Source: Candidatus Eiseniibacteriota bacterium (lineage in GTDB: Bacteria > Joyebacterota > Joyebacteria > Joyebacterales > Joyebacteraceae). From it: a stretch of 36,426 bases of DNA. The translations under genes and the position numbers were made by a program. The notes below the pieces were generated by a model that saw only the letters and a list, made by a program, of their open reading frames with translations, was not told the DNA's origin and made no database searches. This document shows, piece by piece, positions 1,664-36,426 of the stretch. How positions within the stretch are numbered: position 1 is the stretch's first letter; each line of letters begins with the position of its first letter. The stretch is from NCBI GenBank assembly GCA_043819135.1, contig JBDRFG010000151.1:1-36426 (forward strand), read 5' to 3'.

Positions 1664-1690
1664 GTTCCATGTGCAGAGCACTGATTCCAG

Positions 1691-2314: not shown

Positions 2315-2359
2315 GACTCTCTTCCGTTGGGCTGCCGGGCCGCGGCCGGGCCGGGCGTT

Positions 2360-3784
2360 CTACTTCCCCTTGACCGCTTCTGTCTCCGGGAGCGCTTCTT
2401 TCGCCTCGGCGCCCGTGCGCTTGAGGTACTTCTCGATCTGCGCGGGCTTGACGCGCTTGAGTTCCGACAACGGCAGGATCTCCAGGAGCTCCCAGCCGAG
2501 CGTCAGCGTCTCTTCGATCGTCCGGTTCTCGTCGCCTCCCTGCTTGACGTACCTGTTCTCGAAGACCTCGGCGAACTTAAAGAACGCCCTGTCCTCCGAC
2601 GACAACGCAGCCTCGCCCAGAATGACCGCAAGCTCCTGCGCCTCTTTGCCGCGCGCGTACGCGGCGAAGAGCTGATTGGCAAGGTTCGCGTGGTCCTCCC
2701 GCGTCCGTCCCTCACCGATGCCCTTGTCCCTCAGACGCGAGAGCGACGGCAGCACGTTGATCGGCGGGTAGATGCCCTTCCGATGCAGCGCGCGATCGAG
2801 GATGATCTGACCCTCGGTTATGTAGCCGGTGAGGTCGGGTATCGGGTGCGTCTTGTCGTCCTCCGGCATCGAGACCACCGGAATCTGCGTGATGGAACCG
2901 CCCTTGCCCTTGATGCGCCCCGCGCGCTCGTAGATGGTCGACAGGTCCGTATAGAGGTATCCGGGATAGCCTCGACGACCCGGGACCTCCTTGCGCGCCG
3001 CCGAGATCTCGCGCAGCGCCTCGCAGTAGTTCGTAAGATCAGTCAGGATGACCAGCACGTGCATCTCGAGCTCGTACGCCAGGTACTCCGCTGCGGTCAG
3101 CGCCATCCGCGGCGTGGCGATCCGCTCGATCGCGGGGTCGTTGGCCAGGTTGACGTACAGAACGGCGCGGTCGATGGCGCCGGTCCGGCGGAAGTCGGAG
3201 ATGAAGTACTCGGCCTCCTCGAACGTAATGCCCATCGCCGCGAACACGACGGCGAAGCTGCCCTCGGTCCCGAGCACCGCCGCCTGGCGCGCGATCTGCG
3301 CCGCGAGCTCCGCATGCGGAAGACCGAAGCCGCTGAAGATGGGAAGCTTCTGCCCGCGCACGAGCGTGTTCAGCCCGTCGATGGACGAGATCCCGGTCTG
3401 GATGAACTCGTTCGGGTAATCGCGAGCGGTCGGGTTGAGTGGAGCGCCGGCAACGTCACGCTTGATCTCGGGGATGACCTGGGGCCCGCCGTCCTTGGGC
3501 CGTCCGAGCCCGTCGAAGACCCTTCCCAGAATGTCCGGCGACAGGCCCAGCTCGAGCCCGTGCCCAAGGAAGCGCACCTTAGCGCTGTCTACCGACACAC
3601 CCGTGGCGCCCTCGAAGAGCTGCACCAGCGCGGTGTCCTCGTCGACCTCGAGCACCCTGCCCCGCCTCACCTCACCGTTAGGCAGCTCGACCTCGACCAG
3701 CTCTTCGTACTTGACCCCGGACACGCCCCCCACCAGCAGAAGTGGCCCGGCTATCTCTTGGACGGTCCTGTATTCCTTTACCAT
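2360..3784 (-). CDS. atpB: V/A-type ATP synthase subunit B
   Basis: MVKEYRT…[60 protein letters not shown] at 3784 follows GAGGAG. Confidence 0.97.
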
Positions 3785-3863
3785 CGGCAGCTCTCCTCGA
3801 ACCAGTTGGTCGTTCGTGCCTGCGGCCCGTCGTCTAACTGCGCGGCGCGTATGCGCCCTGCCG

Positions 3864-5654: not shown

Positions 5655-5726
5655 GCTCGATTCTCCTGTTGGGAACACAGCGCGCCGGCCGAGTCATCGC
5701 CGTCGCGGACGGTTCGGGCGCCGGGG

Positions 5727-6056
5727 CTAGTCCTTCTCCCCAGATTCCGCAAAGATGTCGGCGCCTACCGCGGCCGATACGGCCTTGTGTATCTCGGTGG
5801 CCGCCAGCCCCCTCGAGCCGGTTACGCCCGGCAGGACCGTGACCGTCGGAAGTGCAAGATCTCTGTACTTCGCCATCTGGTCGGAGCAAGCTTCGTAGAC
5901 GTCCTCGGTGACGAAGATGACCGCGTGGGCTCCGCTAACCGCCGCATCGAATGCGGCGCTCGCCTCGTCCGATCCCGCGACCGGAAACACGGCGAGACCG
6001 AAGGCTTTGAAGCCCCACACAGAATCTCTGTCACCTATGAAAGCGATCTTAGACAT
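5727..6056 (-). CDS. atpF: V/A-type ATP synthase subunit F
   Basis: KIAFIGDRDSVWGFKAFG N-terminus and AVGADI C-terminus; 109 aa; lies between C and A. Confidence 0.92.
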   Translation of the reverse strand: MSKIAFIGDRDSVWGFKAFGLAVFPVAGSDEASAAFDAAVSGAHAVIFVTEDVYEACSDQMAKYRDLALPTVTVLPGVTGSRGLAATEIHKAVSAAVGADIFAESGEKD

Positions 6057-7068
6057 GGGCGGCCCTCAGCCTCGCCTCGACCGCGGCGCGCGGAACGCCG
6101 TCCAGCTTCGCGGCGACGGCGGCCCGGACGAGCTTGATCTCCAGGACTCGCAGCAGTATGAACGCGACCAGCGGCTCGATCCCGTACGCGATGGTCCTGG
6201 CCTGCTCCATGTGCTCGAGCAGAATGTTGTCACACGCAAGCTCGAGAGCGTTTGCCATGCTGGCGGTCCACTCGCGAAACACCGGCGCGAGTGCGCCGTA
6301 GCGGCCGTACTCGAGGCTGCGCGCGAACGCGTCCACGGGTTCACCCAGGTGCGCCTCGAAGAAGGAGAGGTCAAGCGTTCCTCCGGGAACGAACGCGCGG
6401 AAGAGGTCCGTTCGGTCCCTGCCCGCTTCCTTGATCCTTATGAAGGCCTTCACGTTGGCGATGTCGATCTCGATGTGAAAGTACCCGACGAGGAACTCGT
6501 TGCCGGAATCATAGGCGGTTCCCAGGAGGTGCTTCCACATAGCGAGATCGAACTCGCGGTCCACTCCCGCCAGTTCGTTGCTGTCCAGGTAGCTGTCCCT
6601 CGCCGCCCTGACGGCGCCGGAGAGAACGGACGGCAGCGACGTGAGGTCGTCATCCTGCAGCGCCTTCTGAAGCACGGGGAGGGCAATGGTGCCCGGGCCG
6701 TCTACGAGACCGATCTCCTCGCCCGCCCGTCCTGCTGCTTCCTCGAGCTTGAGAAGCGCCGCCTTCGTGAGCGATTTCAGATTCCGAAAGTCCCAGCGAA
6801 GTCGGAAGAGGTCGATGAGTTCGGGCTCGGGTGAGAGCGCCGCAACGGTCGACAGTGTATCCGCGAGCGCCCGGGCCAGGCCGCTCTCGAGACCCTCCGG
6901 GCGGTCGACGTCGGAAACGGACTCCTGGAACGCCGAATCGGCCAGCACCTTGAGCGCGCCCTCCGCGTCCTCGGCGAGAAGCCGCTCGATCCATTGCCGG
7001 TCGAGAAGCCGGGTCTCCAGGCCCCTGACCCGCGCTACGGCGTATGCGTATCTTGTGTCGTCGGCCAT
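6049..7068 (-). CDS. atpC: V/A-type ATP synthase subunit C (AC39 family)
   Basis: YAYAVARVRGLETRLL N-terminus, D..NLK and ID..NVK repeats, GIEPLVAF; position in operon. Confidence 0.9.
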   Translation of the reverse strand: MADDTRYAYAVARVRGLETRLLDRQWIERLLAEDAEGALKVLADSAFQESVSDVDRPEGLESGLARALADTLSTVAALSPEPELIDLFRLRWDFRNLKSLTKAALLKLEEAAGRAGEEIGLVDGPGTIALPVLQKALQDDDLTSLPSVLSGAVRAARDSYLDSNELAGVDREFDLAMWKHLLGTAYDSGNEFLVGYFHIEIDIANVKAFIRIKEAGRDRTDLFRAFVPGGTLDLSFFEAHLGEPVDAFARSLEYGRYGALAPVFREWTASMANALELACDNILLEHMEQARTIAYGIEPLVAFILLRVLEIKLVRAAVAAKLDGVPRAAVEARLRAAHV

Positions 7069-7074
7069 CCGCCG

Positions 7075-7671
7075 CTACTCCCCGCTACCGCCAAACAGTA
7101 TCGCCGCGATCTCGATCTCCAGTCTTTCCCTGGCGTCTCGGAGGATCGTCTCAAGCGCACAGTTGGTCTCCACCCTTCCACTTCTCAGGATGAAGCCGCC
7201 TCTTATCGGCCGCCGCTCGCTCGAGAGCTTGAGGCCGCCGCCCCAGCCTGCTTCCTTCGACACGGAATCAAGGTACGCCTGGTCGATCCGCGTCTCGGTC
7301 GCCCCTATCAGAACTTCCTCGTCGCCCGATTCGACCGTGCTCTTGAGAAACCCCGTGATGAACTTCCGGTACTCAACCTGGTCCATTCCGGCGATCTTCT
7401 TCCCGGCTTCGTCGAAGACGCGGTCGATGAACCCCTGTTTCTCGTCGAGCAGTTCCCGCCGGGCAGCAAGCCGGGCGAGCGTCGTGATGCGGTTCCGCTC
7501 CTCCTGAGCGCGCTGCTCCGCCTTCGCCCTCAGTTCTTTCTTCTGAGCCTCGGCCCTGGCGCGCGCTTCGCCCGCCACGACGTCGGCCGCCTCCTGACCC
7601 TCGGAGACGATCTTCCGGGCCGCCTCCTCGGCGTCCGCCTTGATCTTCTTCAGGATGTCGTCGACAGCCAT
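7075..7671 (-). CDS. atpE: V/A-type ATP synthase subunit E
   Basis: MAVDDILKKI plus coiled-coil N-half, GGFIL…ETNC..E C-terminal motif. ATG at 7671. Confidence 0.9.
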   Translation of the reverse strand: MAVDDILKKIKADAEEAARKIVSEGQEAADVVAGEARARAEAQKKELRAKAEQRAQEERNRITTLARLAARRELLDEKQGFIDRVFDEAGKKIAGMDQVEYRKFITGFLKSTVESGDEEVLIGATETRIDQAYLDSVSKEAGWGGGLKLSSERRPIRGGFILRSGRVETNCALETILRDARERLEIEIAAILFGGSGE

Positions 7672-7742
7672 CGATCTACCGCCTGTTCGTTCGCCCCCCG
7701 GCGCGCTGCGACGAGGAGCCGAAGACATGTTGGTATCCCGTA

Positions 7743-8207
7743 CTACATGCCGATCTTCTGCAGGAGCAGGATCGTCCCGAGGAGCCCGAGCACCGCGTAC
7801 GTCTCGACGACGATCGCGAAGATCATGCCCTTGCCCATCTCGTCCGGACGCTTGGCGACCAGACCGCAGGCCGCGCCGGACACCTTCCCCTGCGCGATAC
7901 CGGACGTGAGGCCCGTGATGGCCAGCGGCACGCACGCGAAGAGGACCTGCCAGCCCTGCGCCATCGTCATGTCGGTCAGGCCCAGCGCGGTCATCTTGCC
8001 GAGGGCGAGAAAGAGCCCCACAATGCCGTAGATGCCCTGGGTCCCGGGAAGCGCTTGGAGAAGAAGCAGCCGCCCGAACTTCTCAGGGTCCTCCGCCACG
8101 ACGCCCGAGCCCGCCTGGCCGCCGATCCCGGTGCCGATCGCGGAGCCGGTCCCCGCGAGGCCGGCCGCGAGGGCCGCGCCCGCCAATCCCAGCATCAGTC
8201 CATCCAT
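7743..8207 (-). CDS. atpK: V/A-type ATP synthase rotor subunit K (four-helix proteolipid, Na+-type signature)
   Basis: PEKFG…LPGTQGIYG, SGIAQG and VETYA match the Enterococcus hirae NtpK ion-binding segments. Confidence 0.95.
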   Translation of the reverse strand: MDGLMLGLAGAALAAGLAGTGSAIGTGIGGQAGSGVVAEDPEKFGRLLLLQALPGTQGIYGIVGLFLALGKMTALGLTDMTMAQGWQVLFACVPLAITGLTSGIAQGKVSGAACGLVAKRPDEMGKGMIFAIVVETYAVLGLLGTILLLQKIGM

Positions 8208-8299
8208 ACCAGAACTCCTTCCTTGCCTGCTGTGTCTTCCGCGTTCTCGTCTTGTTTGCGTTCCGGCACGTCACGCCCCGTCCGCGGGGCGCCCGGCCG

Positions 8300-10270
8300 T
8301 TACTCCCTCTTCGTCATCGAGTACCGCTTCTCCACCCTGAACGGCTCGAACGCCCGACCTCCTCCGGTGAAGAACTTCGAGAAGAACTCCAGATACTGAA
8401 GTCGCGCCGAATGAACAAAGCCACCCAAGCAGTTGACGGCAAGGTTGAAGAGGTGGCCGCCTATCAGGATCAGGACCACGACGACCGGCCCCACAATGGG
8501 GATGCCGCTCGCCATTTCCGCGACTCCGTTGATGGCCATGGCGATTGCGCCCGTCGCAAGTCCGAGCGCCAGGAGCCGCGCGTACGAGAGTATGTCGCCG
8601 AAGTAGCCGACGATGTCGTAAAGCTTGAGAACGCCTCCCAGGATCTTCATGATCGGGTTGCTGTTCTTCCGCGCACCGGTGAGGACGACGAGCGCGCCTG
8701 CGGCCATCGCGCCCTTGCCCGAGACGGCCATTACGCCCTCGGGAACGCTCCCACCCAGAATGAAGTTGTATCCCAGTGGGACCAGGAGCGCCAGGAAGAA
8801 GACCCACAGGAGCTGGTCGAGCATGCCGTCGATCCAGCGTCCCTCTCTGATATCCGCGACCATCCTTATGATCAGGCCCGCCATTATCTGCACGATGCCG
8901 AGTATGAAGACCACATTGAGCATCTTCATCGGCTCCTCGAGCGGGTTCATGACTATGGCGCTGCGAAGCCATCCGGGCATGACGGCCTGGTCTATGCCGA
9001 ACCAGCCGCCCGTGACGGCGCCGACGACAGCGGTGGAGATGCCACCCATCATCAGAAGCTTCATGAGCTGGCGCCCGCCGCCGGGTTGCATCTTGGTCAT
9101 GAGGAAGAGCGACACGGCCGCCAGCGTGAGGCCGTAGCCGCCGTCGCTGACACACAGTCCGAAGAAGACGATGAAGAAGGGGGCGAGAAGCGGTGTCGGA
9201 TCTCGTTCCAAATAGGCCGGTCTGCCGTAGAGCGTCGTCACGAACTCGAACGGGTTGACCGCGCTCGAGTTGTGAAGGTCGATGGGAACGTCCTCCCCCT
9301 TCGCAGGATCTCGGCTCAGAATCTCGACCTCGGGGGCGATCTCGGCAAGTCGCGAGTGGATGCCCTCTTCATCCCGTCCCCGGATCCAACCTTCCACGAG
9401 AAACGTCTCGCGCGTGGTGCCGAACCGCTCCTCCGCTACTTTCTTCGCGAGCGTCTCGGCGCCCTCGTCGAGGACGACCAGGACTGTGCGGTGTTCGCGC
9501 GCAAGCTCGGTGGCCTCTTCTTTGAGTTCCTCGATCTTCGCGCGAAGGCCGTCGGCCTCCTCGAGCAACGTCGCGGCCGCCCGCTCCGGCATTCCGGAGG
9601 CACCCGAGAGGTTCGCCCGGCGTGCGTTGTGTCTCTTGAGGATGGGCGCGACCAGCAACTCATCGCTCTTCAGGAAGAACACGGCCAGGTAGGCCGACGA
9701 ACCCGACCTCGATACTTCGACGAGCTCGGCCTCGCTCGTCGCCTCCCCGAGTTCGGCGGAGAGTTCATCCACGTCGGACGATTCCACCGTCAGGAGAGCG
9801 ACGGTCGCAAGTCGCGTGTCCTCCACTTCTTCGATCAGCGCGTCGATGCGGGCCCAGTGCCCGAGTTCCGCCGCCAGAGATTCCTTGCGGTCTATCCCCG
9901 CCTCTGCGCCGCGCATGGCGCCTTCGAGTTCGATGACGCGGTGGTACCAATCATCGAGGTCGAAGCTCTCCATGATGCCCGAAAGTTCGTCGGCCCCGAT
10001 CGCGACACGAGGGTTGAACATCGTGTCGAGGGATTTCTTCTCTTTGGAAATGTAGGGCTTGAGGAAGTCCTTGAGGTGTTCGAGCTTGCTCAGCTTGACC
10101 TGCAGGTCGCGCTCGCTCTCGCGGCGCGACTCTTCGTCGCAGCCGCGTTCGAACTCGATCGACGGCTCCGTGATATGGAGCGCGCCCCCCTCGCGGAGAG
10201 CGGCTACGATCCCGTCCTTGACGCCCTTGTGCGCCAGGATCTGTATCTTCCTCATCCGGCTCACAGCCAT
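8300..10270 (-). CDS. atpI: V/A-type ATP synthase subunit I (a)
   Basis: Soluble N-half; YGRP.Y.ERDPT, FFG…DGGYG, DILSYARLLALGLA (essential Arg), HSARLQYLEFFSKF. Confidence 0.95.
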   Translation of the reverse strand: MAVSRMRKIQILAHKGVKDGIVAALREGGALHITEPSIEFERGCDEESRRESERDLQVKLSKLEHLKDFLKPYISKEKKSLDTMFNPRVAIGADELSGIMESFDLDDWYHRVIELEGAMRGAEAGIDRKESLAAELGHWARIDALIEEVEDTRLATVALLTVESSDVDELSAELGEATSEAELVEVSRSGSSAYLAVFFLKSDELLVAPILKRHNARRANLSGASGMPERAAATLLEEADGLRAKIEELKEEATELAREHRTVLVVLDEGAETLAKKVAEERFGTTRETFLVEGWIRGRDEEGIHSRLAEIAPEVEILSRDPAKGEDVPIDLHNSSAVNPFEFVTTLYGRPAYLERDPTPLLAPFFIVFFGLCVSDGGYGLTLAAVSLFLMTKMQPGGGRQLMKLLMMGGISTAVVGAVTGGWFGIDQAVMPGWLRSAIVMNPLEEPMKMLNVVFILGIVQIMAGLIIRMVADIREGRWIDGMLDQLLWVFFLALLVPLGYNFILGGSVPEGVMAVSGKGAMAAGALVVLTGARKNSNPIMKILGGVLKLYDIVGYFGDILSYARLLALGLATGAIAMAINGVAEMASGIPIVGPVVVVLILIGGHLFNLAVNCLGGFVHSARLQYLEFFSKFFTGGGRAFEPFRVEKRYSMTKRE

Positions 10271-10276
10271 CCGACG

Positions 10277-10612
10277 CTACCCCCGGGTCGTGACTGCTCC
10301 TGCCGTCATGAGTTCCATTACCTTCTTGATTCCGGCCTCCACGCGCTGCTCGGCGCCCGACCGCATACTCTCCACGCTCGACTTGCTCTCGGCGACGAGC
10401 TTCTCCGCCTCGGCCTCCGCCTCCCGCGCGGCCGCCTCCCGCAGCCCCTTCTCCTCCTCCCGCCCCGACTTCCGCATCTCGTCGAGCTCGCGTTCCGCTG
10501 CGTCGCGCGCGTCAGCGATCAGCGTCTTACTCCTGGCGTGGGCCGCGCGTTCGATCTCGTCGGCCTCACGCTCGGCGTTCCTGATCCGTTCAATGGATTC
10601 GGATACCACCAC
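10277..10612 (-). CDS. V/A-type ATPase peripheral-stalk subunit H/G
   Basis: About 110-aa E/A/R-rich coiled coil (IERIRNAEREADEI) as first gene of the operon. GTG at 10612 or 10609 follows GAGGGGG. Confidence 0.8.
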   Translation of the reverse strand: MVVSESIERIRNAEREADEIERAAHARSKTLIADARDAAERELDEMRKSGREEEKGLREAAAREAEAEAEKLVAESKSSVESMRSGAEQRVEAGIKKVMELMTAGAVTTRG

Positions 10613-10692
10613 GTCCCCCTCACGGCCCGCCGCAACTTGGCCCCACACGCGCACTTGCGCCGCCCGACGGGCCAATGACAAACTCGAATTTC

Positions 10693-10791
10693 GGTGGATA
10701 ACCCGGGTTCGAGGCGACTGACTGAGGTGTTTAAGTTATTACAATATAAGAAGATACGCGCGTCGCGAACCATTATGCACAGTTGTCCACA
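10693..10791. promoter_or_regulatory. Cluster of three DnaA-box-like 9-mers around an AT-rich tract, upstream of the V-ATPase operon
   Basis: TTATCCACC (- strand, 10693-10701), TTATGCACA (10773-10781), TTGTCCACA (10783-10791); AT-rich TTTAAGTTATTACAATATAAGAA at about 10730-10752. Confidence 0.55.
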
Positions 10792-10845
10792 CATCCGCCC
10801 AGGGAGTACGCGGACCGTGCAACGAACGACACCGTTCCTGCTCCC

Positions 10846-11286
10846 CTAGAGGTCGGCGTCCTCGTATTCCTCTTCCTCAACTCCGACCTCATCGAGGCCC
10901 AAACCCGACACTCCGCGACTCCGCGCCGGCGGGTCGACCACGTCCCCCATCTGGCAGTTGCCCTGGAAGACGACGCCGTCCTCGATAACGAGTCCCCGCG
11001 TCTTAATGTCGCCCAGAAGCTGCGAGCCGCGCTGAAGCTCGATCTTGCCGGATGCGAACACGTTACCGTACATCCTGCCACCGATAGCAGCATTCGCCAC
11101 AGTCACGTCGCCATCGACCTTGCCGGTCTCCCCGACGACGAGCGTGTCGGTTGCGTCGATCGTTCCCTCGAACTCGCCGTCAACCTGGATGCTGCCTTCG
11201 ACCTTCACGTCGCCTTTGAGGATCGTTCCCTCACCGATAATCGTATTCACGTCGGCCGCAGTCCTTTCCTCATCTCTAGCGAACAT
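10846..11286 (-). CDS. Bactofilin (polymer-forming cytoskeletal protein, CcmA/DUF583)
   Basis: Beta-helix repeats TIIGEGTILKGDV.VEGSIQVDG.FEG…L.IEDGVVFQG. ATG at 11286 follows AAGGGGG. Confidence 0.92.
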   Translation of the reverse strand: MFARDEERTAADVNTIIGEGTILKGDVKVEGSIQVDGEFEGTIDATDTLVVGETGKVDGDVTVANAAIGGRMYGNVFASGKIELQRGSQLLGDIKTRGLVIEDGVVFQGNCQMGDVVDPPARSRGVSGLGLDEVGVEEEEYEDADL

Positions 11287-11368
11287 CCGTTCCCCCTTTG
11301 ACGCCGGGGGCGAAGGGCTTCGCCCGACGCTCCCGCGCGCGTCAAGTCCAATTGCAATCGAACGCCAG

Positions 11369-11397
11369 AAGCTAGCAGACGGCCTCCGGAGAGTCAA
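11369..11397 (-). promoter_or_regulatory. Sigma70-type promoter for the bactofilin gene
   Basis: TTGACT-17 nt-TAGCTT with TG extension on the - strand. Confidence 0.5.
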
Positions 11398-11492
11398 CAT
11401 CTAACACCCTCCCGAAATTTCTTCACCAGCGTCCCGCGCTGCCTCCCTCGACCCCGGCCACCCTGCTCGCGCGCCCTGCGTTGCCCGCGTCT

Positions 11493-20951: not shown

Positions 20952-21003
20952 CTCATCCTCGATACTCGACGTGAAACTACCCGTTGCACTGCTTGAATTC
21001 AAA

Positions 21004-21032
21004 AGGCTATCAATCCACCCCATGCATGTCAA
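21004..21032 (-). promoter_or_regulatory. Sigma70-type promoter for the rpmH operon
   Basis: TTGACA-17 nt-TAGCCT on the - strand. Confidence 0.6.
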
Positions 21033-21153
21033 GCCCATTCCCCACTACCGTGCCCCACAACCCTCGCTCCCGACCTCCGCTTCCCACAATCCCCCTACGC
21101 ATCCCCACTTCCAGCCACTCCGCAGAAAAAGCCGCGTCCACGCAAAAAAGTCC

Positions 21154-21183
21154 TTGCACGATTTCCGGCCTCCGTGCTAACAT
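21154..21183 (+). promoter_or_regulatory. Candidate dnaA promoter
   Basis: TTGCAC-18 nt-TAACAT with TG extension, preceded by A-tracts. Confidence 0.45.
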
Positions 21184-21344
21184 GCTCCGCCGTCACAAAG
21201 ACCGTTGATAAGTGCGCGACGCTGATTGGAAGGAATGTCCGGAATCAGAAACCTGCCGCAGCCACGGTGGTCGCCGCTCCTGGCTCAACACGACAGGGTC
21301 CAGCATCCCGGGCGCAAGAGCATAACCAATAGCAACTTACACAG

Positions 21345-21481
21345 TTATCCACAATGGGGAGAATTTCTGTAGATAGTCTGGACGCGTCGCTTCCTCGGAA
21401 ATACCGCGAGGAGCATCGACTTCCTACGAAATACTCCGAGAATCGACGGTTGTGGATAACTTGTTAACGTTTTGTTGATAA
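21345..21481. promoter_or_regulatory. DnaA boxes upstream of dnaA (autoregulation and/or left half of a bipartite oriC)
   Basis: TTATCCACA (21345-21353), TGTGGATAA (21451-21459), TGTTGATAA (21473-21481). Confidence 0.8.
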
Positions 21482-21495
21482 GATGCGGGCCCCCT

Positions 21496-22836
21496 ATGAT
21501 CGCCTCAGACCTGTGGACACGGTGTCTCGAGACCATCCGCGAGGAGACGGAACACCAGAGCTATCAGACGTGGTTCGAGCCGACGCGTGGCGTCGAGCTT
21601 ACGGACGACGCCGTGAAGATAGAGGTGCCGAACCGATTCTTCGCTGATTGGCTTGAGGAACACTATATGGGTCTGGTGCGGCGCGCCGTAGAAGAGAACG
21701 CCGGCAGGAGGCTCGACCCGGTGTTCCAGGTGGCCCACAAGAGCCCGGACCAGTACGAACCGGTATCGACTCGGCGGGAAGCACCTCCGCCACTGACCAC
21801 AGCAGCGGCCGATGAGTGCCAACTCAACCCGCGGTATACGTTTTCAACGTTTGTCGTCGGGAATAGCAATCGCTTTGCTCAGGCTGCAACTATGGCAGTG
21901 GCGGAGGCACCCGCCAATGCGTATAACCCGCTCTTTATATATGGTGGCGTAGGCCTCGGCAAGACCCATCTGATGCAGGCCATCGGCCAGTACGTCAGGG
22001 AGAAGCGCCCGGATCTCTCAGTCTACTACGTCTCGTCGGAAACGTTCATGAATGAGCTGATCACGTCGATCCAGCGAGGCAGCACCCTGAAGTTCCGGGA
22101 CAAATACCGGAGCAAGGATGTCCTCCTTATAGACGACGTTCAGTTCCTGGCCGGCAAAGAGAGCACGCAGGAGGAGTTCTTCCACACCTTCAACGCGCTC
22201 TACCTGGCCCACAAGCAGATCGTCATGACGAGCGACCGGCCACCAAAGCAGATAGCTACACTGGAGGAACGTCTGGTGTCGCGGTTCGGGTCCGGACTGG
22301 TTACGGACGTCCAACCACCCGACCTGGAAACCAGGATAGCCATACTCAACGAGAAGGCGGAGCTGGACGGGATTTCGATTCCCAATGACGTAATTCATTT
22401 GATAGCAAATAGTGTTACGTCGAATATCCGCGAGCTGGAGGGGTCGCTCGTCCGGCTCCTTGCCTTTTCAAGTCTCACCGGCAGCGAGATCACCGTAGAC
22501 CTGGCCAAAGAGGTCCTGAGCGAGTTTCTCGGGGCGCCTCGAGGCCCGGTCTCGGTCGCGCGCATCCAGCAGGCTGTCGCCGAAAACTACGGCGTGCCTG
22601 TCGAGAAAATGAAGGCTCGGGGTCGAGCCAGCCAGATAGCGCACGCGCGCCAGGTTGCCATGTACCTCGCTCGAGAGCTTACCCATCTGTCTTTGGCGCA
22701 GGTGGGGGAGCACTTCGGCGGCCGGGACCACACCACGGTCCTTCACGCCCAGCGGAAGATCACCGAAGAGGTCGCACGACCCGGTCAGACGCAGCGCGAC
22801 GTCGAGAACCTCAGGCGCATGCTCCGAACGGCGTAG
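21496..22836 (+). CDS. dnaA: Chromosomal replication initiator DnaA
   Basis: LNP.YTF..FV.G.SN, YNPLFIYGGVGLGKTHL, IDDVQF, QEEFFHTFN, NIRELEG, GGRDHTTV. Confidence 0.98.
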   Translation: MIASDLWTRCLETIREETEHQSYQTWFEPTRGVELTDDAVKIEVPNRFFADWLEEHYMGLVRRAVEENAGRRLDPVFQVAHKSPDQYEPVSTRREAPPPLTTAAADECQLNPRYTFSTFVVGNSNRFAQAATMAVAEAPANAYNPLFIYGGVGLGKTHLMQAIGQYVREKRPDLSVYYVSSETFMNELITSIQRGSTLKFRDKYRSKDVLLIDDVQFLAGKESTQEEFFHTFNALYLAHKQIVMTSDRPPKQIATLEERLVSRFGSGLVTDVQPPDLETRIAILNEKAELDGISIPNDVIHLIANSVTSNIRELEGSLVRLLAFSSLTGSEITVDLAKEVLSEFLGAPRGPVSVARIQQAVAENYGVPVEKMKARGRASQIAHARQVAMYLARELTHLSLAQVGEHFGGRDHTTVLHAQRKITEEVARPGQTQRDVENLRRMLRTA

Positions 22837-25721: not shown

Positions 25722-28301
<2,580 letters not shown>

Positions 28302-28317: not shown

Positions 28318-30744
28318 ATGCCAACGACCGAGAGAATCCTCCCCATCGTCATCGAAGACGAGATGAAGAAGTCCTACATCGATTACGCGATGAGCGTGAT
28401 CGTGTCCAGGGCTCTGCCGGACGTCAGGGACGGCCTGAAGCCGGTGCAACGGCGCATTCTCGTCGCGATGGATGAACTGGGACTCGCACACAACAAGACC
28501 TACAGAAAGTCGGCGAAGATCTCAGGCGACGTCACCGGCAACTACCATCCGCACGGGACGGCGGCCGTCTACGACGCGATGGTCCGCATGGCGCAGGATT
28601 TCTCGCTGAGACACCCGTTGGTGGACGGACAGGGCAACTTTGGGTCGATAGACGGGGACAGCGCGGCCGCCGAGCGGTACACAGAGGCGCGGATGACGCG
28701 CATCGCCGAGGATCTGCTCGAGGACCTCAAGAAGGATACGGTCGACTTCGTGCCGAACTACGACGGCACGCGCGAGGAGCCGCTGGTTCTTCCAGCCAAG
28801 CTCCCCAACCTCCTTATGAACGGAGCCTCCGGCATCGCGGTCGGCATGGCGACTAATATCCCACCACACAACCTCGTGGAGCTCGTCGATGGCATCGTCG
28901 CGATCATCGACGACCCGGACATTCCGGACGAAAAGCTCCTCACCATGATACACGGGCCCGACTTCCCGACGGGCGGCATCATCTTCGGGCGGAGCGGTGT
29001 GCGAGACGCGTACCTGACCGGCCGCGGCCGCATCGTCGTGCGTGCGCGCGCCAACATCGAGGTTCATACCAACGGTAGCGAGAGCATCATCATCACCGAA
29101 ATCCCGTTCATGGTGAACAAGTCCAGCCTGATCGAGAACATCGCCAACCTCGTCCGTGAGGGCAAGGTCACCGGAATACGCGACCTTCGGGACGAGTCGG
29201 ACCGCGACGGCATCAGAGTCGTCATCGACATGAAGCGTGACGCGCAGGCGAACGTCATCCTGAACCAGCTCTACAAGAGCACGCAGATGCAGACCACGTT
29301 CGGGACTATCCTCCTGGCGCTCACCAACAACGTTCCAAAGATCATGACTCTGAAGGAGATGCTCTCGCACTACATCGCGCACCGCGAGGAGGTCATCGTC
29401 AGGCGGACGAGGTTCGACCTGGCCAAGGCGGAGGCACGGGCGCACATCCTCGAGGGGCTCAAGAAGGCGCTGGACCACATCGACGAAATAGTCCAGCTCA
29501 TCAAGAAGTCGAAGGACGTGGACCACGCCCGCGCGCAACTGATGAAGACGTTCGGGCTCTCGGAGATACAGTCCCAGGCGATTCTGGATATGAGACTCCA
29601 GCGCCTGACCGGACTCCAGAGGAAGAAGATAGAGGACGAGTACAAGGAAGTCATCAAGCTGATCGCGACGCTCAAGGGTATTCTCGAGAGCCGCGCGAAA
29701 GTGCTCGCCATGATCAAGGAGGACCTCACGGCCGCGGCCGAGGCCTACGGCAACGAAAGACGCACCGAGATCATCGAGGCAACGACCGATTTCGCGATAG
29801 AGGACCTGATCGCCGAGGAGGACATGGCGATCTCGATCTCACACACCGGCTACATCAAGCGCCTTCCCGTCGGGACGTATCGTCGACAGCGCAGGGGCGG
29901 CAAGGGCATCACCGGGATGGGGACCAAAGAGGATGACTTCGTCGAGCACATGCTGATCGCCTCGACCCACGACTACATCCTCTTCTTCACGCAGACGGGC
30001 CAGTGCCACTGGCTCAGGGTGCACGAGATCCCGCAGGCGGGGAGGGCGGCGAAGGGCAAGGCCATCGTCAACCTGCTTCAAGTGGAAAAGAACGAATCGA
30101 TAGCGGCCTTCATCGCGGCCCGTGAGTTCGACGACGATCACTTCGTCGTGATGGCGACGAGAAAGGGAGTGGTCAAGAAGACCAGGCTCTCGGCCTACTC
30201 GCACCCGAGACGCGGGGGCATCCGCGCCATCAATATCGACAAGGGCGACGAACTCATCGACGCCGCGGTGACGGACGGAAACCACGACGTCATTCTCGCG
30301 AAGAGGCTCGGCAAGGCGATTCGCTTCCAGGAGAGCGACGTCCGCGAGATGGGGCGCACCGCGCGCGGCGTCAGAGGAACGTTGCTCGAGAAGGGCGACG
30401 AAGTCGTCGGAATGGTCGTCGCGATGGGAGAGCAGGTGACGGTCCTGTCGATCACCGAGCACGGCTACGGAAAGCGGACCAACATCTCCGACTACCGGAT
30501 CATCAGGCGCGGCGGCAAGGGCGTTATTTCTATAAAGGCGAACAAGAGAAACGGGAAGGTCGTCGCCGTCAGGATCGTCAACGAGCCGGACGAGGTCATG
30601 ATAATGACCGCGCAGGGTGTGATGATCCGCCTTCCCGTCAAGGGCATTTCAGTGATCGGCCGCAACACCCAGGGCGTCAGGGTCATCAATCTCGGCAAGG
30701 ATGACAGGGTGATCGACGTCGCCTGCGTGGCGAGCGAAGAGTAG
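28318..30744 (+). CDS. gyrA: DNA gyrase subunit A
   Basis: [21 protein letters not shown] (catalytic Tyr121), GyrA-box QRRGGKG, C-terminal pinwheel repeats. Confidence 0.97.
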
Positions 30745-30861
30745 CCGGGCGGACGAGCCCGCGCGGCGGACACGCGGAGTCGACGCCCCATCCTCCGGAA
30801 CCAGACGACCGTGAACCGGTGAGCACAGGGCCGGAGCGCGGCGCCCCATCAGGAGGTGAGC

Positions 30862-32583
30862 GTGAATCGAATCGAGCGCACGGCGCTGGTCTCGGTCGTG
30901 ATCAACATCGGGCTGGTTCTCCTCAAGGTGCTTCTTGCAAGTCTGTCCGGGAGCCTCGCGCTCATCGCCGACGCGTGGCACTCGGCCTCGGACATCGTGG
31001 CCTCTGGCCTCGTCTGGACCGGCGCACGAATCTCGCGCCGCAAGGGCCGGGTGAACCTGGCGCTCGCAGAGAACATCGTCAGCCTCATCATCAGCGGTCT
31101 GATCCTCTGGGCGGCCGTGGGCATCTTCCGGAAGGTGTCGACGGTCGTCGGAGCTCCCATCACGAACCTCCCCCTGGCCATCGGCGGCAGCCTCGTCGCC
31201 GCGCTCATTTCATACTACGCCGCTCAGTACAAACTGCACGTAGGGCGCGAGACCGGCAGCATCAGCCTGGTCGCCGACGGATACCACTCCCGCATGGACA
31301 CCCTGACGACCGGCGCGGTCGTCGCGGGTCTCATGGGCCACGCGATGGGGATCGAGCTTGACCGCATCGCGGCCGTCGTCGTTGCTCTGTTCATCGTGGA
31401 ATCCGGCATCGTCATTGGTGCGGCGGCGATCCGAGGGCTGCGCGAGGGCACGACCTCCCAGGCCGAATCACTCTCCTACATCATGCAGACGCGCCCCGTC
31501 GTGGCGGTCGGGAGCGCGCTCGAACGATTCGGAATTCGCGCGCTGTTCGTGCGCCTGCGGAGCACGGTTCGGCGACCCGGATGGCTGCGGTGTTTCACGT
31601 GGTCGGCGGTCGCGCTCGTGGCGGCGGCGTGGGTGCTGTCAAGCGCGTCGTTCGTCGGCCCGGGTGGCGCGGGCGTCGTGACGAGATGGGGCAGGGCGCT
31701 GGACGAGATCCTGATGCCTGGCGTACACCTCAAGGCGCCGTGGCCGATAGACAGGGTCGCGCGAGTGGAGCAGCAGAAAGTGAGGCGCCTGGAGGTGGGC
31801 TTCCGCACACGGGAGGTCGCGCGTTCAATAAACGCGGTCGCCGCGGAATTCTACGCGACGCTCTGGGAGAGTCGCCACGCGGCCGGAACCTACGAGAAGC
31901 TCCCGGACGAGGCGTTGAGACTCACGGGCGACGAAAACATCGTGGACATGAACATCGTTGTCTTCTACCGCGTCAGCGACCCGGAGGCCTATCTCTTCAG
32001 GGTCGCGGAGACGGAGGATCTGGTACGCTTCACGGCGGAGTCCGTGACTACCAACGTTGCCGGCGAGTTCGCGCTCGACGACATCGTGACGGTACACCGC
32101 GGGATGTTCGAGGAGCTGATGGTGACGGCGCTACAAGATCTCCTCGATCTTTCCAGTGGGGGCGTGGAGATCGTGGGCATCAGCCTTCAGGATGTGCATC
32201 CGCCACTCGAGGTGGTCCCGGCGTTCAGGGACGTAGCCAGCGCTAAGGAAGACAAGAGCCGCATCATCAACGAGGCGCTGGCGTACATGGACGAGACGAT
32301 ACCCACGGCCAGGGGAGATGCACACCGCATGGTCCTCGAGGCCGAGGGCTACAGGTCTGACAGGGTGGACCGGGCGAGGGGCGATTCAGATCGATTCAGA
32401 GAAATGGCCAAGCACTACCGCGGTGCCGAGAGGGTCACCGAGATCCGCCTCTACCTCGAGACCATAGAGAATGTTCTGGCGGGCATCGAGAAGTACATCG
32501 TGAGCTCCGACGTCGAGCTCGAGGGATACGACATAAGGGTGCTCGACAAAGAACTCACGCCGGGCACGGCGGCGCTGGAGTAG
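30862..32583 (+). CDS. Fusion of a cation diffusion facilitator (CDF) transmembrane domain to an HflK-like SPFH domain
   Basis: N-half GSLALIADAWHSASD and SLVADGYHSRMD (CDF TM2/TM5 HxxxD), six TM segments, then a seventh TM and PG.H…PWPID, LTGDENIV, QDVHPP.EV..AF.DV..A.ED, RLYLET. GTG at 30862 follows AGGAGG. Confidence 0.85.
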   Translation: MNRIERTALVSVVINIGLVLLKVLLASLSGSLALIADAWHSASDIVASGLVWTGARISRRKGRVNLALAENIVSLIISGLILWAAVGIFRKVSTVVGAPITNLPLAIGGSLVAALISYYAAQYKLHVGRETGSISLVADGYHSRMDTLTTGAVVAGLMGHAMGIELDRIAAVVVALFIVESGIVIGAAAIRGLREGTTSQAESLSYIMQTRPVVAVGSALERFGIRALFVRLRSTVRRPGWLRCFTWSAVALVAAAWVLSSASFVGPGGAGVVTRWGRALDEILMPGVHLKAPWPIDRVARVEQQKVRRLEVGFRTREVARSINAVAAEFYATLWESRHAAGTYEKLPDEALRLTGDENIVDMNIVVFYRVSDPEAYLFRVAETEDLVRFTAESVTTNVAGEFALDDIVTVHRGMFEELMVTALQDLLDLSSGGVEIVGISLQDVHPPLEVVPAFRDVASAKEDKSRIINEALAYMDETIPTARGDAHRMVLEAEGYRSDRVDRARGDSDRFREMAKHYRGAERVTEIRLYLETIENVLAGIEKYIVSSDVELEGYDIRVLDKELTPGTAALE

Positions 32584-32683
32584 GCGCGCCGAGGCGGCAC
32601 GTCCGGCCGGTGACGTACCACGGGCGGTCGCGCCCGGAGCACTCGCACTCGCGGCGCTTCACGAACGGACCCGGGAGGATATT

Positions 32684-33565
32684 GTGATCAAGAGAAGATA
32701 CTACACGGTGGCGGCAGCACTCATCGCCCTGCTTGTTCTCAGGACCGCGATGTTCGTGGTCGACGAGACGAAGACGGCGATCGTGACGCAATTCGGCCGC
32801 CCGGTGAGGGTGGTCGACACGGCCGGCCTCAACTGGAAGCTGCCGCAGCCGGTCCAGGCCGTCAGGCTCTTCGACAAGCGGCTTCTGGTCTACGACCCGA
32901 AGCCGACTGAGTTTCTGACGAACGACAAGAAGAACGTCGTCGTTGACGCGTTCGTCACCTGGCGGATCGCGGACCCGAAGAAGTTCCTTCAGACGGTGAA
33001 CGACCGCGAGGGGGCCGAGGTGCGGATGGCGGACATCGTCGCATCAGAGATGGGAGCTGCGCTCGGCAACTACCCACTTCACGCGCTGGTATCGATCCAC
33101 CCCGACTCGATGAAGATCGTCGAGATAATGGAGGGAGTGGCGCAGGGGTGCAGGACCACGGCCGAGTCGAGCTTCGGTATCGAGGTGGCCGACGTGCGGA
33201 TGAAGCGTCTCGCCTTCCCGGAGCAGAACAAGCAGAGTGTCTTCGACCGGATGCGCGCGGAACGCGAGCGCACGGCCAAGAAGTACCGCTCCGAGGGTGA
33301 AGAAGAGGCCATCAAGATCCGGGCTGAGGCCGACAAGGAGCGACAGGAGATCCTTGCGTCGGCCTACATGGAGGCCGAGAAGATCCGCGGCGAGGGGGAC
33401 GCCGAGGCGATGCGCATCTACGGCGCGGCCTACAACACCGATCCCTCCTTCTACGAGTTCGTGAGGACGCTCGAATCGTACAGGACCTTCCTCGACGACA
33501 AGACCACCATCGTGCTGTCGTCCGACTCGGACCTCCTCAAACTTCTCGACAAGAAGGGGAATTGA
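32684..33565 (+). CDS. hflC: HflC-like SPFH protein
   Basis: F.VDE…IV.QFG.P, FDKR, LT.DKK..VVD, DVRMKR, RMRAERE..A..YRSEG, AY..DP.FY.F.RTLE.Y; GTG follows GGGAGG. Confidence 0.92.
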   Translation: MIKRRYYTVAAALIALLVLRTAMFVVDETKTAIVTQFGRPVRVVDTAGLNWKLPQPVQAVRLFDKRLLVYDPKPTEFLTNDKKNVVVDAFVTWRIADPKKFLQTVNDREGAEVRMADIVASEMGAALGNYPLHALVSIHPDSMKIVEIMEGVAQGCRTTAESSFGIEVADVRMKRLAFPEQNKQSVFDRMRAERERTAKKYRSEGEEEAIKIRAEADKERQEILASAYMEAEKIRGEGDAEAMRIYGAAYNTDPSFYEFVRTLESYRTFLDDKTTIVLSSDSDLLKLLDKKGN

Positions 33566-33567
33566 AC

Positions 33568-34524
33568 GTGGCGGAGACGACGGTCAGGTCCGACATGTCT
33601 GCCGGACTTCCCAAGGTCAGGAGGCTGGCGCGACTCATCGCGCTGGTCGCCGTAGCCATGTATATACTTTCAGGCATATATGTCGTCCAGCCCGACGAGC
33701 GAGGTGTGATCAAGAGGCTTGGCAAGGTCGTGGCGGCGGACGTTCAGCCGGGCATTCACTATCGCATCCCCTGGCCCATCGACGAGGTCGCCAGGCCCCA
33801 GGTCACGGCGGTCAAGCGGATGAGCATAGGATATAAGATCATCGACCAGATCCGTGGGCTGACGGCCGAGCCTCGTGAGACCCAGTTCGTCACCGGCGAT
33901 GAGAACATCATCGAGGTGCAGCTCCTGATACAGTATGTTGTCAAGGATCCCGCGAGCTTCCTCTACGCGACCGAGGAGCCCCACTGGCTGGTCAGGAAGG
34001 TGGGGGAGTCGGTCATCACCGAGAAGATAGGTGCGCTGGGCGTTGATGAGCTCCTGACAACGGCGAAGGTCGAAGTTGCCGCCGCCGTGAAGGGCCGCGC
34101 GCAGGACGTGCTCGACTCCTACGGCGCCGGCGTGGAGATCGTGGCCGCCCACCTGCAGGAGGTCAATCCTCCGCGCGAGGTGGCGGACGCCTTCCGCGAC
34201 GTAGCGAGCGCCAGGGAGGACAAGAGCCGCATCATCCAGGAGGCCAGTGGCTACGCGAACCGCATCGTGCCCGTGGCACGCGGCGACGCGCAGCAGCTTA
34301 TCACTGAGGCTGAGGGATACCGGACAGAGAAGGTCAAGACCGCCGAGGGCGAGTCGCACCGTTTCAGGGCCACGGTCGTGGAGTACTGGAAGAGCCCCGC
34401 TGTCACCCGGCAGCGCCTCTACCTGGAGGTGATGGAAGAGGTGCTTTCGAAGGTAAGAAAGTACGTCGTCGATGCCGGCTCCGGCGAGAAACTCAACCTG
34501 AGATTTCTGTCGCAGCGGGACTGA
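33568..34524 (+). CDS. hflK: HflK-like SPFH protein
   Basis: SGIY.VQPDERGV, PG.HY..PWPID, TGDENII, PP.EV..AF.DV..A.ED, A.G.A…EAEGY, RLYLE.ME. Start GTG 33568 or TTG 33562. Confidence 0.9.
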   Translation: MAETTVRSDMSAGLPKVRRLARLIALVAVAMYILSGIYVVQPDERGVIKRLGKVVAADVQPGIHYRIPWPIDEVARPQVTAVKRMSIGYKIIDQIRGLTAEPRETQFVTGDENIIEVQLLIQYVVKDPASFLYATEEPHWLVRKVGESVITEKIGALGVDELLTTAKVEVAAAVKGRAQDVLDSYGAGVEIVAAHLQEVNPPREVADAFRDVASAREDKSRIIQEASGYANRIVPVARGDAQQLITEAEGYRTEKVKTAEGESHRFRATVVEYWKSPAVTRQRLYLEVMEEVLSKVRKYVVDAGSGEKLNLRFLSQRD

Positions 34525-34598: not shown

Positions 34599-34628
34599 TT
34601 GACACCGGGAAGCACCAAGAGCTAGACT
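34599..34628 (+). promoter_or_regulatory. Candidate promoter for the downstream Fe-S/flavin operon
   Basis: TTGACA-18 nt-TAGACT. Confidence 0.45.
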
Positions 34629-34919: not shown

Positions 34920-35987
34920 ATGAAAGAGGTCTTCATTGGAAGCGAGAATCTCCTGAAGCTGATCAGGAGATGGGCGAAGGACCGCCGGGTCTACGTGCCG
35001 GTCACGTTCGACATCATGAACAGCAAGGAGACACCGGACTACGACCTCGTCAAGGACGCCGTTCCGGAGACGATGCAGCTCCACGGAGCGGCTCCGGCGC
35101 ATTCGGCCAAGGCCTTCATCTTCTACGCGCGCGAAGTCGTTGCCAACTACCCCAGCAGCGACGCCGAGGCCAATGTTGAGGCTCCGTCCACTGTCGTCGT
35201 TGGTCCTCGCGGGTGCGACGTTCGCGGTCTGGCCAAGTTCGACAAGGTCTACTGGAGCACCAAGCACTTCACCGAGGAGTACGACGATCCGTTTGTGATC
35301 GATAAGCGCGAGAACACGTACATCGTCTCGGTGGATTGCACCGCCGTGAAAGAGACCTGCTTCTGCACGGCGGTCGGCGGCAGGCCATTCGCTGACGAGG
35401 GATTCGATCTCAACCTCTCGCCGCTGGGAACCGGGTACATCGTCGCCGTCGGGTCGGAGAAGGGCGAGAAGCTCCTCGCCGGGTCGGATGATCTGTTCAG
35501 AGAGGTGACCCAGGAACACAAGGGCGAGCGCGACAGGAGTCGCAAGTCGGTCACCGAAGCGATCGACCGGCAGAACGCCGAGTTCGCGGTCGACCAGCCA
35601 TACGACAAGCGAGACCTCGCGTCGTCGGAAGACGCGTGGGCGTACGTCACACAGAACTGCGTCGGATGCGGCGCGTGCAACCGCGTGTGTCCGACGTGCA
35701 CCTGCTTCCTGCTGGTGGACCAGCGGGCGACGGGCGGATACGAGCGAAGCCGGAACTGGGACACGTGTCTCTCCGTCGGCTACGCGCGGACGGGCGGCGG
35801 AGGCAACTCGAGGCCGGCGCTCGCGCAGCGGCTCGAGAACAGGCTGCGCTGCAAGTTCGAGTACTCACGCGACAGGTACGGCCTCGTGACCTGCACCGGC
35901 TGCGGCAGGTGCATCGATGCCTGCATGGGCAGGATCGACATGAGGGAAGCCATCAAGCACGTGGTCACGGAGAAGGCGAAGGCATGA
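34920..35987 (+). CDS. 4Fe-4S dicluster protein, AsrA / sulfhydrogenase beta (HydB) / Flx-like
   Basis: G.RGCD, C…TCFC, CVGCGACNRVCPTCTCF, R.WD.C, CTGCGRCIDAC; ATG at 34920. Confidence 0.85.
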   Translation: MKEVFIGSENLLKLIRRWAKDRRVYVPVTFDIMNSKETPDYDLVKDAVPETMQLHGAAPAHSAKAFIFYAREVVANYPSSDAEANVEAPSTVVVGPRGCDVRGLAKFDKVYWSTKHFTEEYDDPFVIDKRENTYIVSVDCTAVKETCFCTAVGGRPFADEGFDLNLSPLGTGYIVAVGSEKGEKLLAGSDDLFREVTQEHKGERDRSRKSVTEAIDRQNAEFAVDQPYDKRDLASSEDAWAYVTQNCVGCGACNRVCPTCTCFLLVDQRATGGYERSRNWDTCLSVGYARTGGGGNSRPALAQRLENRLRCKFEYSRDRYGLVTCTGCGRCIDACMGRIDMREAIKHVVTEKAKA

Positions 35988-36426
35988 AGAATCTCTACAG
36001 GCCCATCGAGAGTGTGATCGAGGATATCAAGCCGGAGACGCCGAACATCACGACGTACCGCTTCCGGCCGAAGGAGCCCGTCAGTTTTGAGGCCGGCCAG
36101 TTCGTCGAGCTGACCGTTCCCGGTGTCGGGGAGGCCCCGTTCACACCGTCCTCCAACCCGAACGTCGCCGACACGATGGAGATCACCATCATGTCGGTCG
36201 GCACGGTGACCGAGGCCCTGACGAAGATGAAGGTCGGTGAAACGGTCGGGATCAGAGGGCCCTACGGCAACGGCTACAACCTGGCCGACTTCGAGGGCAA
36301 GGAGATCCTCATCATGGGCGGCGGCGTCGGGCTGGCCCCGCTCCGCTCGCTCATCCTCGCGCTCTTCGACGACGTCGAGAAGTACAAGAAGATATCCATC
36401 CGATACGGCGCGCGGACCCCCGAGGA
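35984..36426 (+). CDS. FAD/NAD(P)-binding oxidoreductase, AsrB / HydG / FlxA-like (truncated by the window end)
   Basis: Read by hand from ATG 35984 (ATGA overlap): MKNLYRP…FEAGQFVEL.VPGVGEAPFT.SS…RGPYGNG…GGGVGLAPLRS…YGAR. Confidence 0.88.
   Translation, partial: MKNLYRPIESVIEDIKPETPNITTYRFRPKEPVSFEAGQFVELTVPGVGEAPFTPSSNPNVADTMEITIMSVGTVTEALTKMKVGETVGIRGPYGNGYNLADFEGKEILIMGGGVGLAPLRSLILALFDDVEKYKKISIRYGARTPE

Follow-up and report, generated by a model that had tools for sequence, protein, structure and literature searches.

A three-gene SPFH locus with a CDF metal transporter fused to an HflK-type subunit: a candidate metal-transporter cage

Introduction

The HflK/HflC cage of Escherichia coli is reported to comprise 24 SPFH domains (PMC12048511), and stomatin is reported to form cages around AQP1 and UT-B (PMC12407830). 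CDF-type proteins are described as exporters driven by the proton-motive force, with a quartet of residues, the A site, as the transport site (PMC8341793). Exporters may also be used to deliver metal to clients of the cell envelope, as reported for the YiiP-PmcY relay (10.1101/2025.05.19.654957), and the TerC proteins MeeF and MeeY are reported to metalate exoenzymes (PMC10550928). HflK/C cages, CDFs and SPFH domes around transporters are thus all known already. Here we analyse a locus of a Candidatus Eiseniibacteriota bacterium that brings such parts together. In the window (the whole stretch of DNA analysed, 36,426 nucleotides of contig JBDRFG010000151.1), three consecutive open reading frames on the + strand, at 30862-34524, encode an HflK-type subunit fused in frame to a CDF domain (K1), an HflC-type subunit (C, gene hflC) and a second HflK-type subunit (K2).

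What bacterial SPFH cages enclose besides FtsH is largely open, and a natural fusion names the client. The label 'FtsH protease activity modulator HflK' has concealed the family. The consulted part of a survey of prokaryotic SPFH proteins makes no mention of transporters or ATPases and gives HflK/C as absent from archaea (PMC2636767), and no description of a CDF-HflK fusion was found in the openly accessible literature, subscription journals and supplements lying outside the scope of that search.

Organization of the locus

The features of the locus are listed below, with K1 residues numbered from the start of its open reading frame at 30856.

30862..32583, + strand: K1 gene, CDF fused in frame to an HflK-type SPFH subunit, 573 aa
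30886..31431, + strand: CDF transmembrane domain of K1, six helices, without ZT_dimer (PF01545, aa 11-192)
30979, 30991, 31285 and 31297, + strand: site A codons for H42, D46, H144 and D148, respectively, invariant in K1 alignments
31444..31596, + strand: basic cytoplasmic linker, weakly conserved, with short helices in the model
31591..31647, + strand: transmembrane helix 7, the HflK membrane anchor (hydropathy, model and alignment to E. coli HflK 77-95)
31654..32274, + strand: SPFH (Band_7) domain of K1, predicted periplasmic, followed by a coiled coil to about aa 540
31786..31911, + strand: insert of K1 at the SPFH1/SPFH2 junction, about 40 residues, with W337-x-x-x-H341 (alignment)
32684..33565, + strand: dedicated HflC-type subunit, 293 aa, one N-terminal transmembrane helix, over the TIGR01932 cut-off
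33562..34524, + strand: K2, second HflK-type subunit, with neither transporter nor W-x-x-x-H, over the TIGR01933 cut-off

The K1 frame spans 30856-32583, with GTG 30862 as the likely start, 5 nt after a ribosome-binding site (AGGAGG, 30851-30856), and the database record likewise has 573 aa. K1 matches the Pfam families Cation_efflux (PF01545, aa 11-192, E 5e-25) and Band_7 (aa 267-473, E 3e-20) and lies over the NCBIfam cut-offs for both TIGR01933 (hflK) and TIGR01297 (CDF). The start of K2 overlaps the stop of hflC by 4 nt. Profiles, membrane anchor, SPFH domain and coiled coil, the features of the HflK/HflC structural family, are all present. A preliminary description of this DNA had read the locus as three SPFH genes of the K, C and K type, the first with an in-frame CDF domain of six helices, and the reading frames, Pfam and the families TIGR01933, TIGR01932 and TIGR01297 agree with it.

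The CDF domain and its transport site

The six-helix domain of K1 fits the CDF family by profile and by fold. The residues H42, D46, H144 and D148 are invariant in all rows of two alignments (37/37 and 39/39) reaching 29-40% identity, and site A reads HD-HD, the quartet reported for ZnT8 (PMC8341793), in 46 of 53 diverse fusions; the other seven comprise two sequences truncated at the N-terminus, four with HD-ED or HD-DD (two of them archaeal) and one degenerate site. By these residues, the fused CDF looks active as a transporter. In the model, short helices and then a transmembrane helix follow the CDF domain in place of the cytoplasmic C-terminal domain. The preliminary description had predicted Cation_efflux and Band_7 without ZT_dimer (PF16916), and ZT_dimer indeed has no match in K1 and none among the precomputed Pfam domains of its homologues. 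The genome also encodes a complete stand-alone CDF on contig C79, so routine efflux is covered elsewhere.

Distribution of the fusion

Both domains are covered, over at least 96% of the K1 query, by 105 of the 120 listed homologues (the window's own included). In the phylum, 27 of 31 genomes match K1 at E <= 1e-60, 25 of the 31 with an unbroken full-length match, and a contig from an independent run spans 30703-32546, including the fusion junction, at about 89% identity. The triplet is absent without trace in genomes G002 and G003, where about 390 and 530 nt separate gyrA from the downstream operon, and G015 shows only a K2-like match near a contig end. G023 carries a decayed copy. There (L260, G023:C13:42100-45700) the triplet has decayed in place at 78% GC, with K1 29% and hflC 43% identical, K2 unrecognisable, and site A and the W-x-x-x-H motif (WESRH) lost together from K1; this genome, 100% complete, gave no match to TIGR01933 at E <= 1e-30.

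Beyond the phylum, full-length fusions were found in 6 of 251 sampled Desulfobacterota genomes (E <= 1e-90), in records of Candidatus Tritonobacter, Reichenbachiella and Altiarchaeota, on one archaeal contig and on a plasmid of the cultured alphaproteobacterium Aquibium oceanicum B7. Scanning metagenomes for the motif yielded 81 loci: 62 with CDF-K1 (37 of these in the full order K1-C-K2), 10 with K1 fused to a P1B-type ATPase (P1B-K1), one split form (L198, a CDF followed by K-C-K), one frameshifted and seven truncated or unfused. A genome scan with alignment A1 returned, among the matches listed, at least two full-length fusions and one cut by a contig end, the remaining rows being ordinary controls except for the P1B-linked loci L024 and L063. 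The fusion was not found in 301 genomes of the Azorhizobium class (P0274, E <= 1e-90, a strict search without a positive control), and in 151 genomes of the phylum of G032 there were 14 matches, none full-length. Since 37 of the 81 motif loci show the whole K1-C-K2 order, most others being cut by contig ends, and since the triplet is cleanly absent from two relatives, K1-C-K2 behaves as a unit.

The preliminary description had left room for an assembly artefact or a singleton and had proposed counting the architecture. The source assembly is a draft of 174 contigs, and the module is missing from G002 and G003 and degraded in G023, which would suit an artefact or a chance fusion without function; against this stand the full-length homologues, the unbroken genomes, the cultured isolate, the independent bridging contig and catalytic residues invariant down to 29-40% identity, so that this explanation is extremely improbable.

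Two further observations concern single types of locus. An archaeal-type form (L189:3012-5715 and L190) has only CDF-K1 and C, with HD-ED at site A, and in L189 these are followed by NifB/NifX-family genes. In Aquibium, the triplet is immediately preceded by an insertion-sequence transposase (L220:3817-5364), which follows a two-component system.

Interchangeable transporters on the K1 lineage

A profile of the SPFH part of K1 was compared with 1.84 billion representative sequences, and the best 150 matches include 42 fusions to CDFs, 31 to P1B-ATPases and three to ArsP_1 permeases. One Sumerlaeota locus reads P1B-K1, C, K2. Of 24 fused P1Bs examined, 23 have CPC and all have H-Q/E in the last helix; their N-termini are too short to contain a metal-binding domain. 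The transporter module is interchangeable, with three unrelated types of metal or metalloid transporter on one K lineage, and this points to a cage for metal handling rather than for proteolysis. The preliminary description had mentioned K-C-K triplets beside heavy-metal P-type ATPases; that link was confirmed and proved stronger than stated, as P1B-ATPases are fused to the same K1 lineage.

Several unusual loci were noted. An ArsP fusion at L245 (G434:C79:4663-7759) was considered and rejected: an open frame there joins an EamA-family transporter to an HflK of the ordinary type, followed by an ordinary hflC, and could be either a transporter-HflK fusion of separate origin or a read-through. 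In one Fervidibacterota genome (L024/L246, G033:C11:2714-7538), P1B-K1 appears to continue into an HflC-like part in a frameshifted assembly, and a representative of 1301 aa (P0294) has a P1B and two Band_7 stretches; K1-C fusions may exist. Seven near-identical loci of hot-spring type (L135, L136, L147, L167, L171, L181 and L193) have P1B-K1 with no C or K2 within 8 kb, and several of them encode a cobalt-nickel transporter, CbiM/CbiQ, at a distance of a few genes.

Separation from ordinary HflKC

The same genome has an ordinary hflK-hflC pair on contig C34 and ftsH on contig C8, and in 26 of the 31 genomes of the phylum a further hflK is found elsewhere. 'Ordinary' here means single K-C loci, for which FtsH binding is established in E. 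coli alone. Plain K-C is the order in 70 of 77 comparison loci, against K1-C-K2 with a fused CDF in the window. In quick IQ-TREE runs, made without bootstraps on sequences with long branches and biased composition, 63 of the 150 K domains split into 45 transporter-linked rows, comprising K2 and all types of K1, and 18 ordinary rows at SH-aLRT 97, and an independent tree of 49 C subunits united 28 of 29 linked rows as a clade (SH-aLRT 96), the exception being the EamA-HflK locus L245. FastTree on all 150 K domains gave the same split at 0.968, and the genome's own C34 pair falls outside the transporter-linked clades. CDF and P1B fusions are interleaved in this tree of all 150 K domains, with support too weak for counting swaps. 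Judged from these trees, the K and C subunits studied here are dedicated ones, apart from ordinary HflKC; the grouping with canonical HflKC that had been considered at the outset was not recovered.

The preliminary description had also pointed to the lack of ftsH and hflX in the window. For ftsH the absence is true, but as an argument the point was rejected, since ordinary hflK loci likewise have no ftsH nearby: a motif regex found ftsH in none of 77 loci (L014-L090), 75 of which are ordinary hflK loci.

These data bear on the metal-gated proteolysis also proposed there. In a reading of this kind, which includes sensing, the triplet would be another modulator of FtsH, with the CDF domain sensing metal and thereby opening or closing the cage. 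The three genes all lie over the HflK/HflC equivalog cut-offs, most K1 have basic residues at the equivalents of R141 and R185 of E. coli HflK, the genome encodes FtsH, itself a zinc protease, one Desulfobacterota triplet (L244) lies beside tilS-ftsH in divergent orientation, and the proteobacterial K1 N-domain described below has no site A, so non-transport roles exist. Yet an ordinary hflKC pair is already present in the genome, a P1B pump is unlikely as a sensor, and archaea too have CDF-K with C (Altiarchaeota P0149, and L189, where an archaeal HPRT passes the cut-off), while HflK/C was described as absent from archaea (PMC2636767) and the FtsH peptidase family matched none of four control archaea. 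The proposal found little support, and we consider it quite improbable.

The insert of K1

Between the equivalents of E. coli HflK residues 142 and 147, the alignment shows about 40 residues in K1, with W-x-x-x-H and further residues Y346, K348 and E352, a signature of most K1 subunits. The motif occurs in 42 of 46 CDF-K1 and 20 of 21 P1B-K1, counts that are inflated by some circularity, since motif-selected sequences had been used to build the search profile, and in 6/6 proteobacterial and 6/6 Desulfobacterota K1; it is found in 0/37 ordinary K and 0/29 K2. It is also invariant in 35/35 proteobacterial K1 found without motif selection (neither this set nor alignment A1 was motif-selected).

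Replacing R141, E142 or R185 of E. coli HflK is reported to weaken FtsH binding (PMC13220708). Because the insert is placed just after the equivalents of the FtsH-contact residues R141 and E142, it probably faces the cage lumen. K1 mostly has R/R/R at the equivalents of R141, E142 and R185. These residues were dropped as a discriminator, since ordinary non-enteric HflK likewise has R at 142; its insert is shorter than that of K1, and for this reason a loss of FtsH binding is not readable from sequence.

The insert also bears on the view that the cage is a scaffold only, which would house, oligomerise and protect a CDF without its dimerising C-terminal domain, with efflux being ordinary and the insert a docking surface. 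The lack of ZT_dimer in K1 and in the Pfam listings of its homologues, the interchangeable transporter, the split form L198 and the stomatin cages, reported to hold transporters with no known role in hand-off (PMC12407830), all suit it. It is nevertheless unlikely, as CDF, P1B and proteobacterial K1 all retain this Trp/His insert although their transporters have no surface in common, the clade recruits metal transporters exclusively, and CDFs lacking the C-terminal domain are reported as a known class that has no cage (PMC8341793).

Proposed function

A dedicated metal-transporter cage is the core common to our readings, and we regard it as very likely. The reading that we prefer, with a probability of roughly 0.45, adds export of metal by the tethered CDF into the periplasmic space that the cage encloses, with hand-off via the K1 insert. 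K1, C and K2 would build their own periplasmic cage of the HflK/C type, separate from the ordinary HflKC of the cell and presumably independent of FtsH, in which C would alternate with K-type subunits and K1 and K2 would share the K positions; with 24 subunits and a K1:K2 ratio of 1:1, there would be about six CDF domains per cage. The CDF would act as a divalent-metal/H+ antiporter, most likely for Zn2+ or Fe2+ and possibly for Co or Mn, carrying metal outward, out of the cytoplasm and into the space beneath the cage; there the W-x-x-x-H insert, facing the lumen, would bind, receive or buffer it. The purpose may be a controlled allocation of metal to envelope clients in homeostasis, not bulk detoxification. 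In favour of this reading stand the HD-HD site A, the separate K and C clades, the further hflK and stand-alone CDF of the same genome, the three types of fused transporter, the shared insert and its loss together with site A in G023, the exported metallophosphoesterases and the Aquibium genes described below, and the precedents of YiiP-PmcY, TerC and stomatin.

Gene neighbourhood

In the phylum, the triplet follows gyrA (gap about 20-270 nt) and precedes a hydrogenase-like operon. In the window its neighbours are gyrA and an asrA/hydB-like gene, with no P1B-ATPase adjoining. In loci from elsewhere, FeoAB, NicO/DUF1007 or Fur/DtxR lie within three genes in 6 of 24 cases versus 0 of 20 ordinary hflKC loci (Fisher p 0.025, or p 0.11 if a chromate transporter counts), the loci being motif-chosen and not independent. 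The test took one locus of at least 6 kb per 70% group; of 24 control loci prepared, 20 were scanned (Marinimicrobia L026, L031, L034 and L044 were dropped as similar to L018), and two of the 115 test proteins were set aside because they belonged to the module itself. Genes for metal uptake or for its regulation are near 3 of the 6 Desulfobacterota loci, and exported metallophosphoesterases adjoin the triplet in 3 of these 6 as well as in one lineage of 11 loci. In Aquibium, the triplet is followed by genes for a peptidyl-prolyl isomerase, a P1B-ATPase, PCuAC and SCO. Because most loci show no metal gene, the neighbourhood evidence for a metal link is moderate.

Related proteobacterial operons and the direction of transport

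The K-C-K relatives of Rhizobium, Burkholderia, Paraburkholderia and Pseudomonas join the transporter-linked K clade as long branches, and membership of the C clade was shown for three plasmid loci only. Their first K has a W-D/E-x-x-H insert and a six-helix N-domain that lacks site A, with hhalign against the CDF alignment giving a probability below 1%, Pfam no CDF match and Foldseek of the model nothing at E <= 0.001. The two best fold matches are CDFs, and these modest matches, the position and the clade suggest a cryptic CDF identity. The Pseudomonas and Rhizobium K-C-K-P1B operons seem, by their sequences, to belong to the transporter-linked family. In two proteobacterial loci the triplet P1Bs have CPC and H-N, and a ZntA-type control differs from the fused P1Bs.

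From annotation and gene order, rather than from the PAO1 sequence, we infer that P0349 represents the PA2439 family, and the PA2439-PA2438-PA2437-(PA2436)-hmtA locus probably corresponds to paFlo5-7 of PA14. In a znuA mutant, expression of PA2437-2439 is reported to be 9- to 14-fold higher (PMC4542158), and their proteins are reported to rise on Zn depletion (PMC11761036); Zur is reported to shift the PA2439 promoter only with Zn (10.1101/2021.05.28.446167), and HmtA has been reviewed as a Cu/Zn importer (PMC8456098). For the PA14 triple deletion, only mild effects are reported for the non-metal conditions consulted here (PMC13086221), a result that would also suit a mere scaffold. Through this Zur-regulated operon with its existing deletion mutants, and through the cultured A. 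oceanicum B7, the family is directly testable.

Import would fit at least as well as export, because the metal genes adjoining 6 of the 24 loci (FeoB, NicO/DUF1007, Fur/DtxR) are uptake systems, and because zinc starvation induces the Pseudomonas locus, which includes a reported importer. The cage might then be an uptake funnel that captures scarce periplasmic metal via the K1 insert and feeds a transporter running inward, the CDF form doing the job reported for HmtA in Pseudomonas. The contrast with ordinary hflKC loci, the three Desulfobacterota loci, the Zur data and the fused P1Bs, which are more like the two proteobacterial triplet P1Bs than the ZntA-type control, speak for it. A proton-coupled CDF running inward would, however, oppose the proton-motive force, the hmtA mRNA was reported in one study not to be repressed by Zn, the Aquibium copy lies in a gene cluster that includes a ZntA-type P1B, and the neighbour loci have the limits given above. 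We hold the funnel to be doubtful.

Besides these signs of import, several points weigh against the preferred reading of export into the cage. CDF-K1 proteins are known as sequences alone, and A-site composition by itself is reported not to fix the metal (PMC8341793). The insert is not essential everywhere, because it is missing in a short CDF-K form (Aquibium and three representatives) and its His is missing in all three ArsP fusions. The joint loss of site A and W-x-x-x-H in G023 is one case of general decay. No metal gene lies within three genes in 18 of the 24 loci, the phylum neighbours (gyrA and the hydrogenase-like operon) show no metal-transport link, and the upstream gaps of 19 relatives, inspected by eye with no formal motif search, have no shared operator. 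The limits of the trees and of the motif counts tell in the same direction.

A wider synthesis can be offered tentatively. The loci may belong to an unrecognised branch of HflK/C that forms an FtsH-free, periplasmic metal-handling compartment in bacteria and some archaea, a cage with a swappable, usually tethered CDF, P1B or ArsP transporter and a lumen-facing Trp/His site. The Zur-controlled PA2439-hmtA operon might be the same machine, with its CDF decayed to a pseudo-transporter anchor, and the cage might be the missing partner that explains why HmtA, unusually, acts as an importer.

Other features of the window

The operon downstream of the triplet was considered as part of the module and rejected, as it stays when the triplet is absent and follows a promoter-like site (34599-34628; one found, 0.5 expected). 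In the window (34920-36426) it begins with an asrA/hydB-like gene followed by a hydG-like gene; relatives L200-L218 add molybdopterin-family and membrane hydrogenase-like subunits, and the operon is conserved in more than 20 loci. At the 5' end of gyrB (26001-26400), GyrB has a Lys/Ala-rich, histone-like N-terminal extension of about 110 aa, its start being uncertain, and a similar extension is seen in 17 of 18 other relative loci (K+A 39-57%). A V/A-type ATPase operon occupies 624-11400 on the minus strand, with a bactofilin gene before it, after parAB; the open reading frame at 624-1670 (348 aa) has no Pfam match. GC skew turns from negative to positive at 21000-22000 near dnaA, consistent with a replication origin.

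Comparison with known systems

In the YiiP-PmcY and TerC systems an exporter likewise serves envelope clients, with unrelated partners and, in their abstracts, no mention of an SPFH cage. Stomatin cages resemble the proposed machine in placing an SPFH dome with a specific transporter; as far as described, they differ in being eukaryotic, non-covalent, homo-oligomeric and not related to metals, and they face the cytoplasm. Known CDFs (YiiP/FieF, MamB/MamM, ZnT/SLC30) have the same six-helix domain, with HD-HD at site A as in ZnT8, whereas K1 has no C-terminal domain and no metal-rich N-tail and continues into an SPFH subunit.

The E. coli HflK/HflC-FtsH cage (PDB 7VHP, 7WI3, 9CZ2, 9PAW) has the same K and C subunits with membrane anchor, SPFH domain and coiled coil, and E. 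coli HflK is the best sequence and fold match of the C-terminal part of K1. The locus described here differs from it in having three subunits, a covalent transporter, a longer insert with W-x-x-x-H after R141/E142 and separate K and C clades, in coexisting with ordinary hflKC and in occurring also in some archaea. The Pseudomonas PA2439-hmtA locus likewise places K-C-K beside a metal transporter, with W-D-x-x-H in the first K of its relatives; this proteobacterial form differs in an N-domain with neither site A nor sequence similarity to CDFs, in a separate P1B gene and in a C subunit with a His-rich N-tail.

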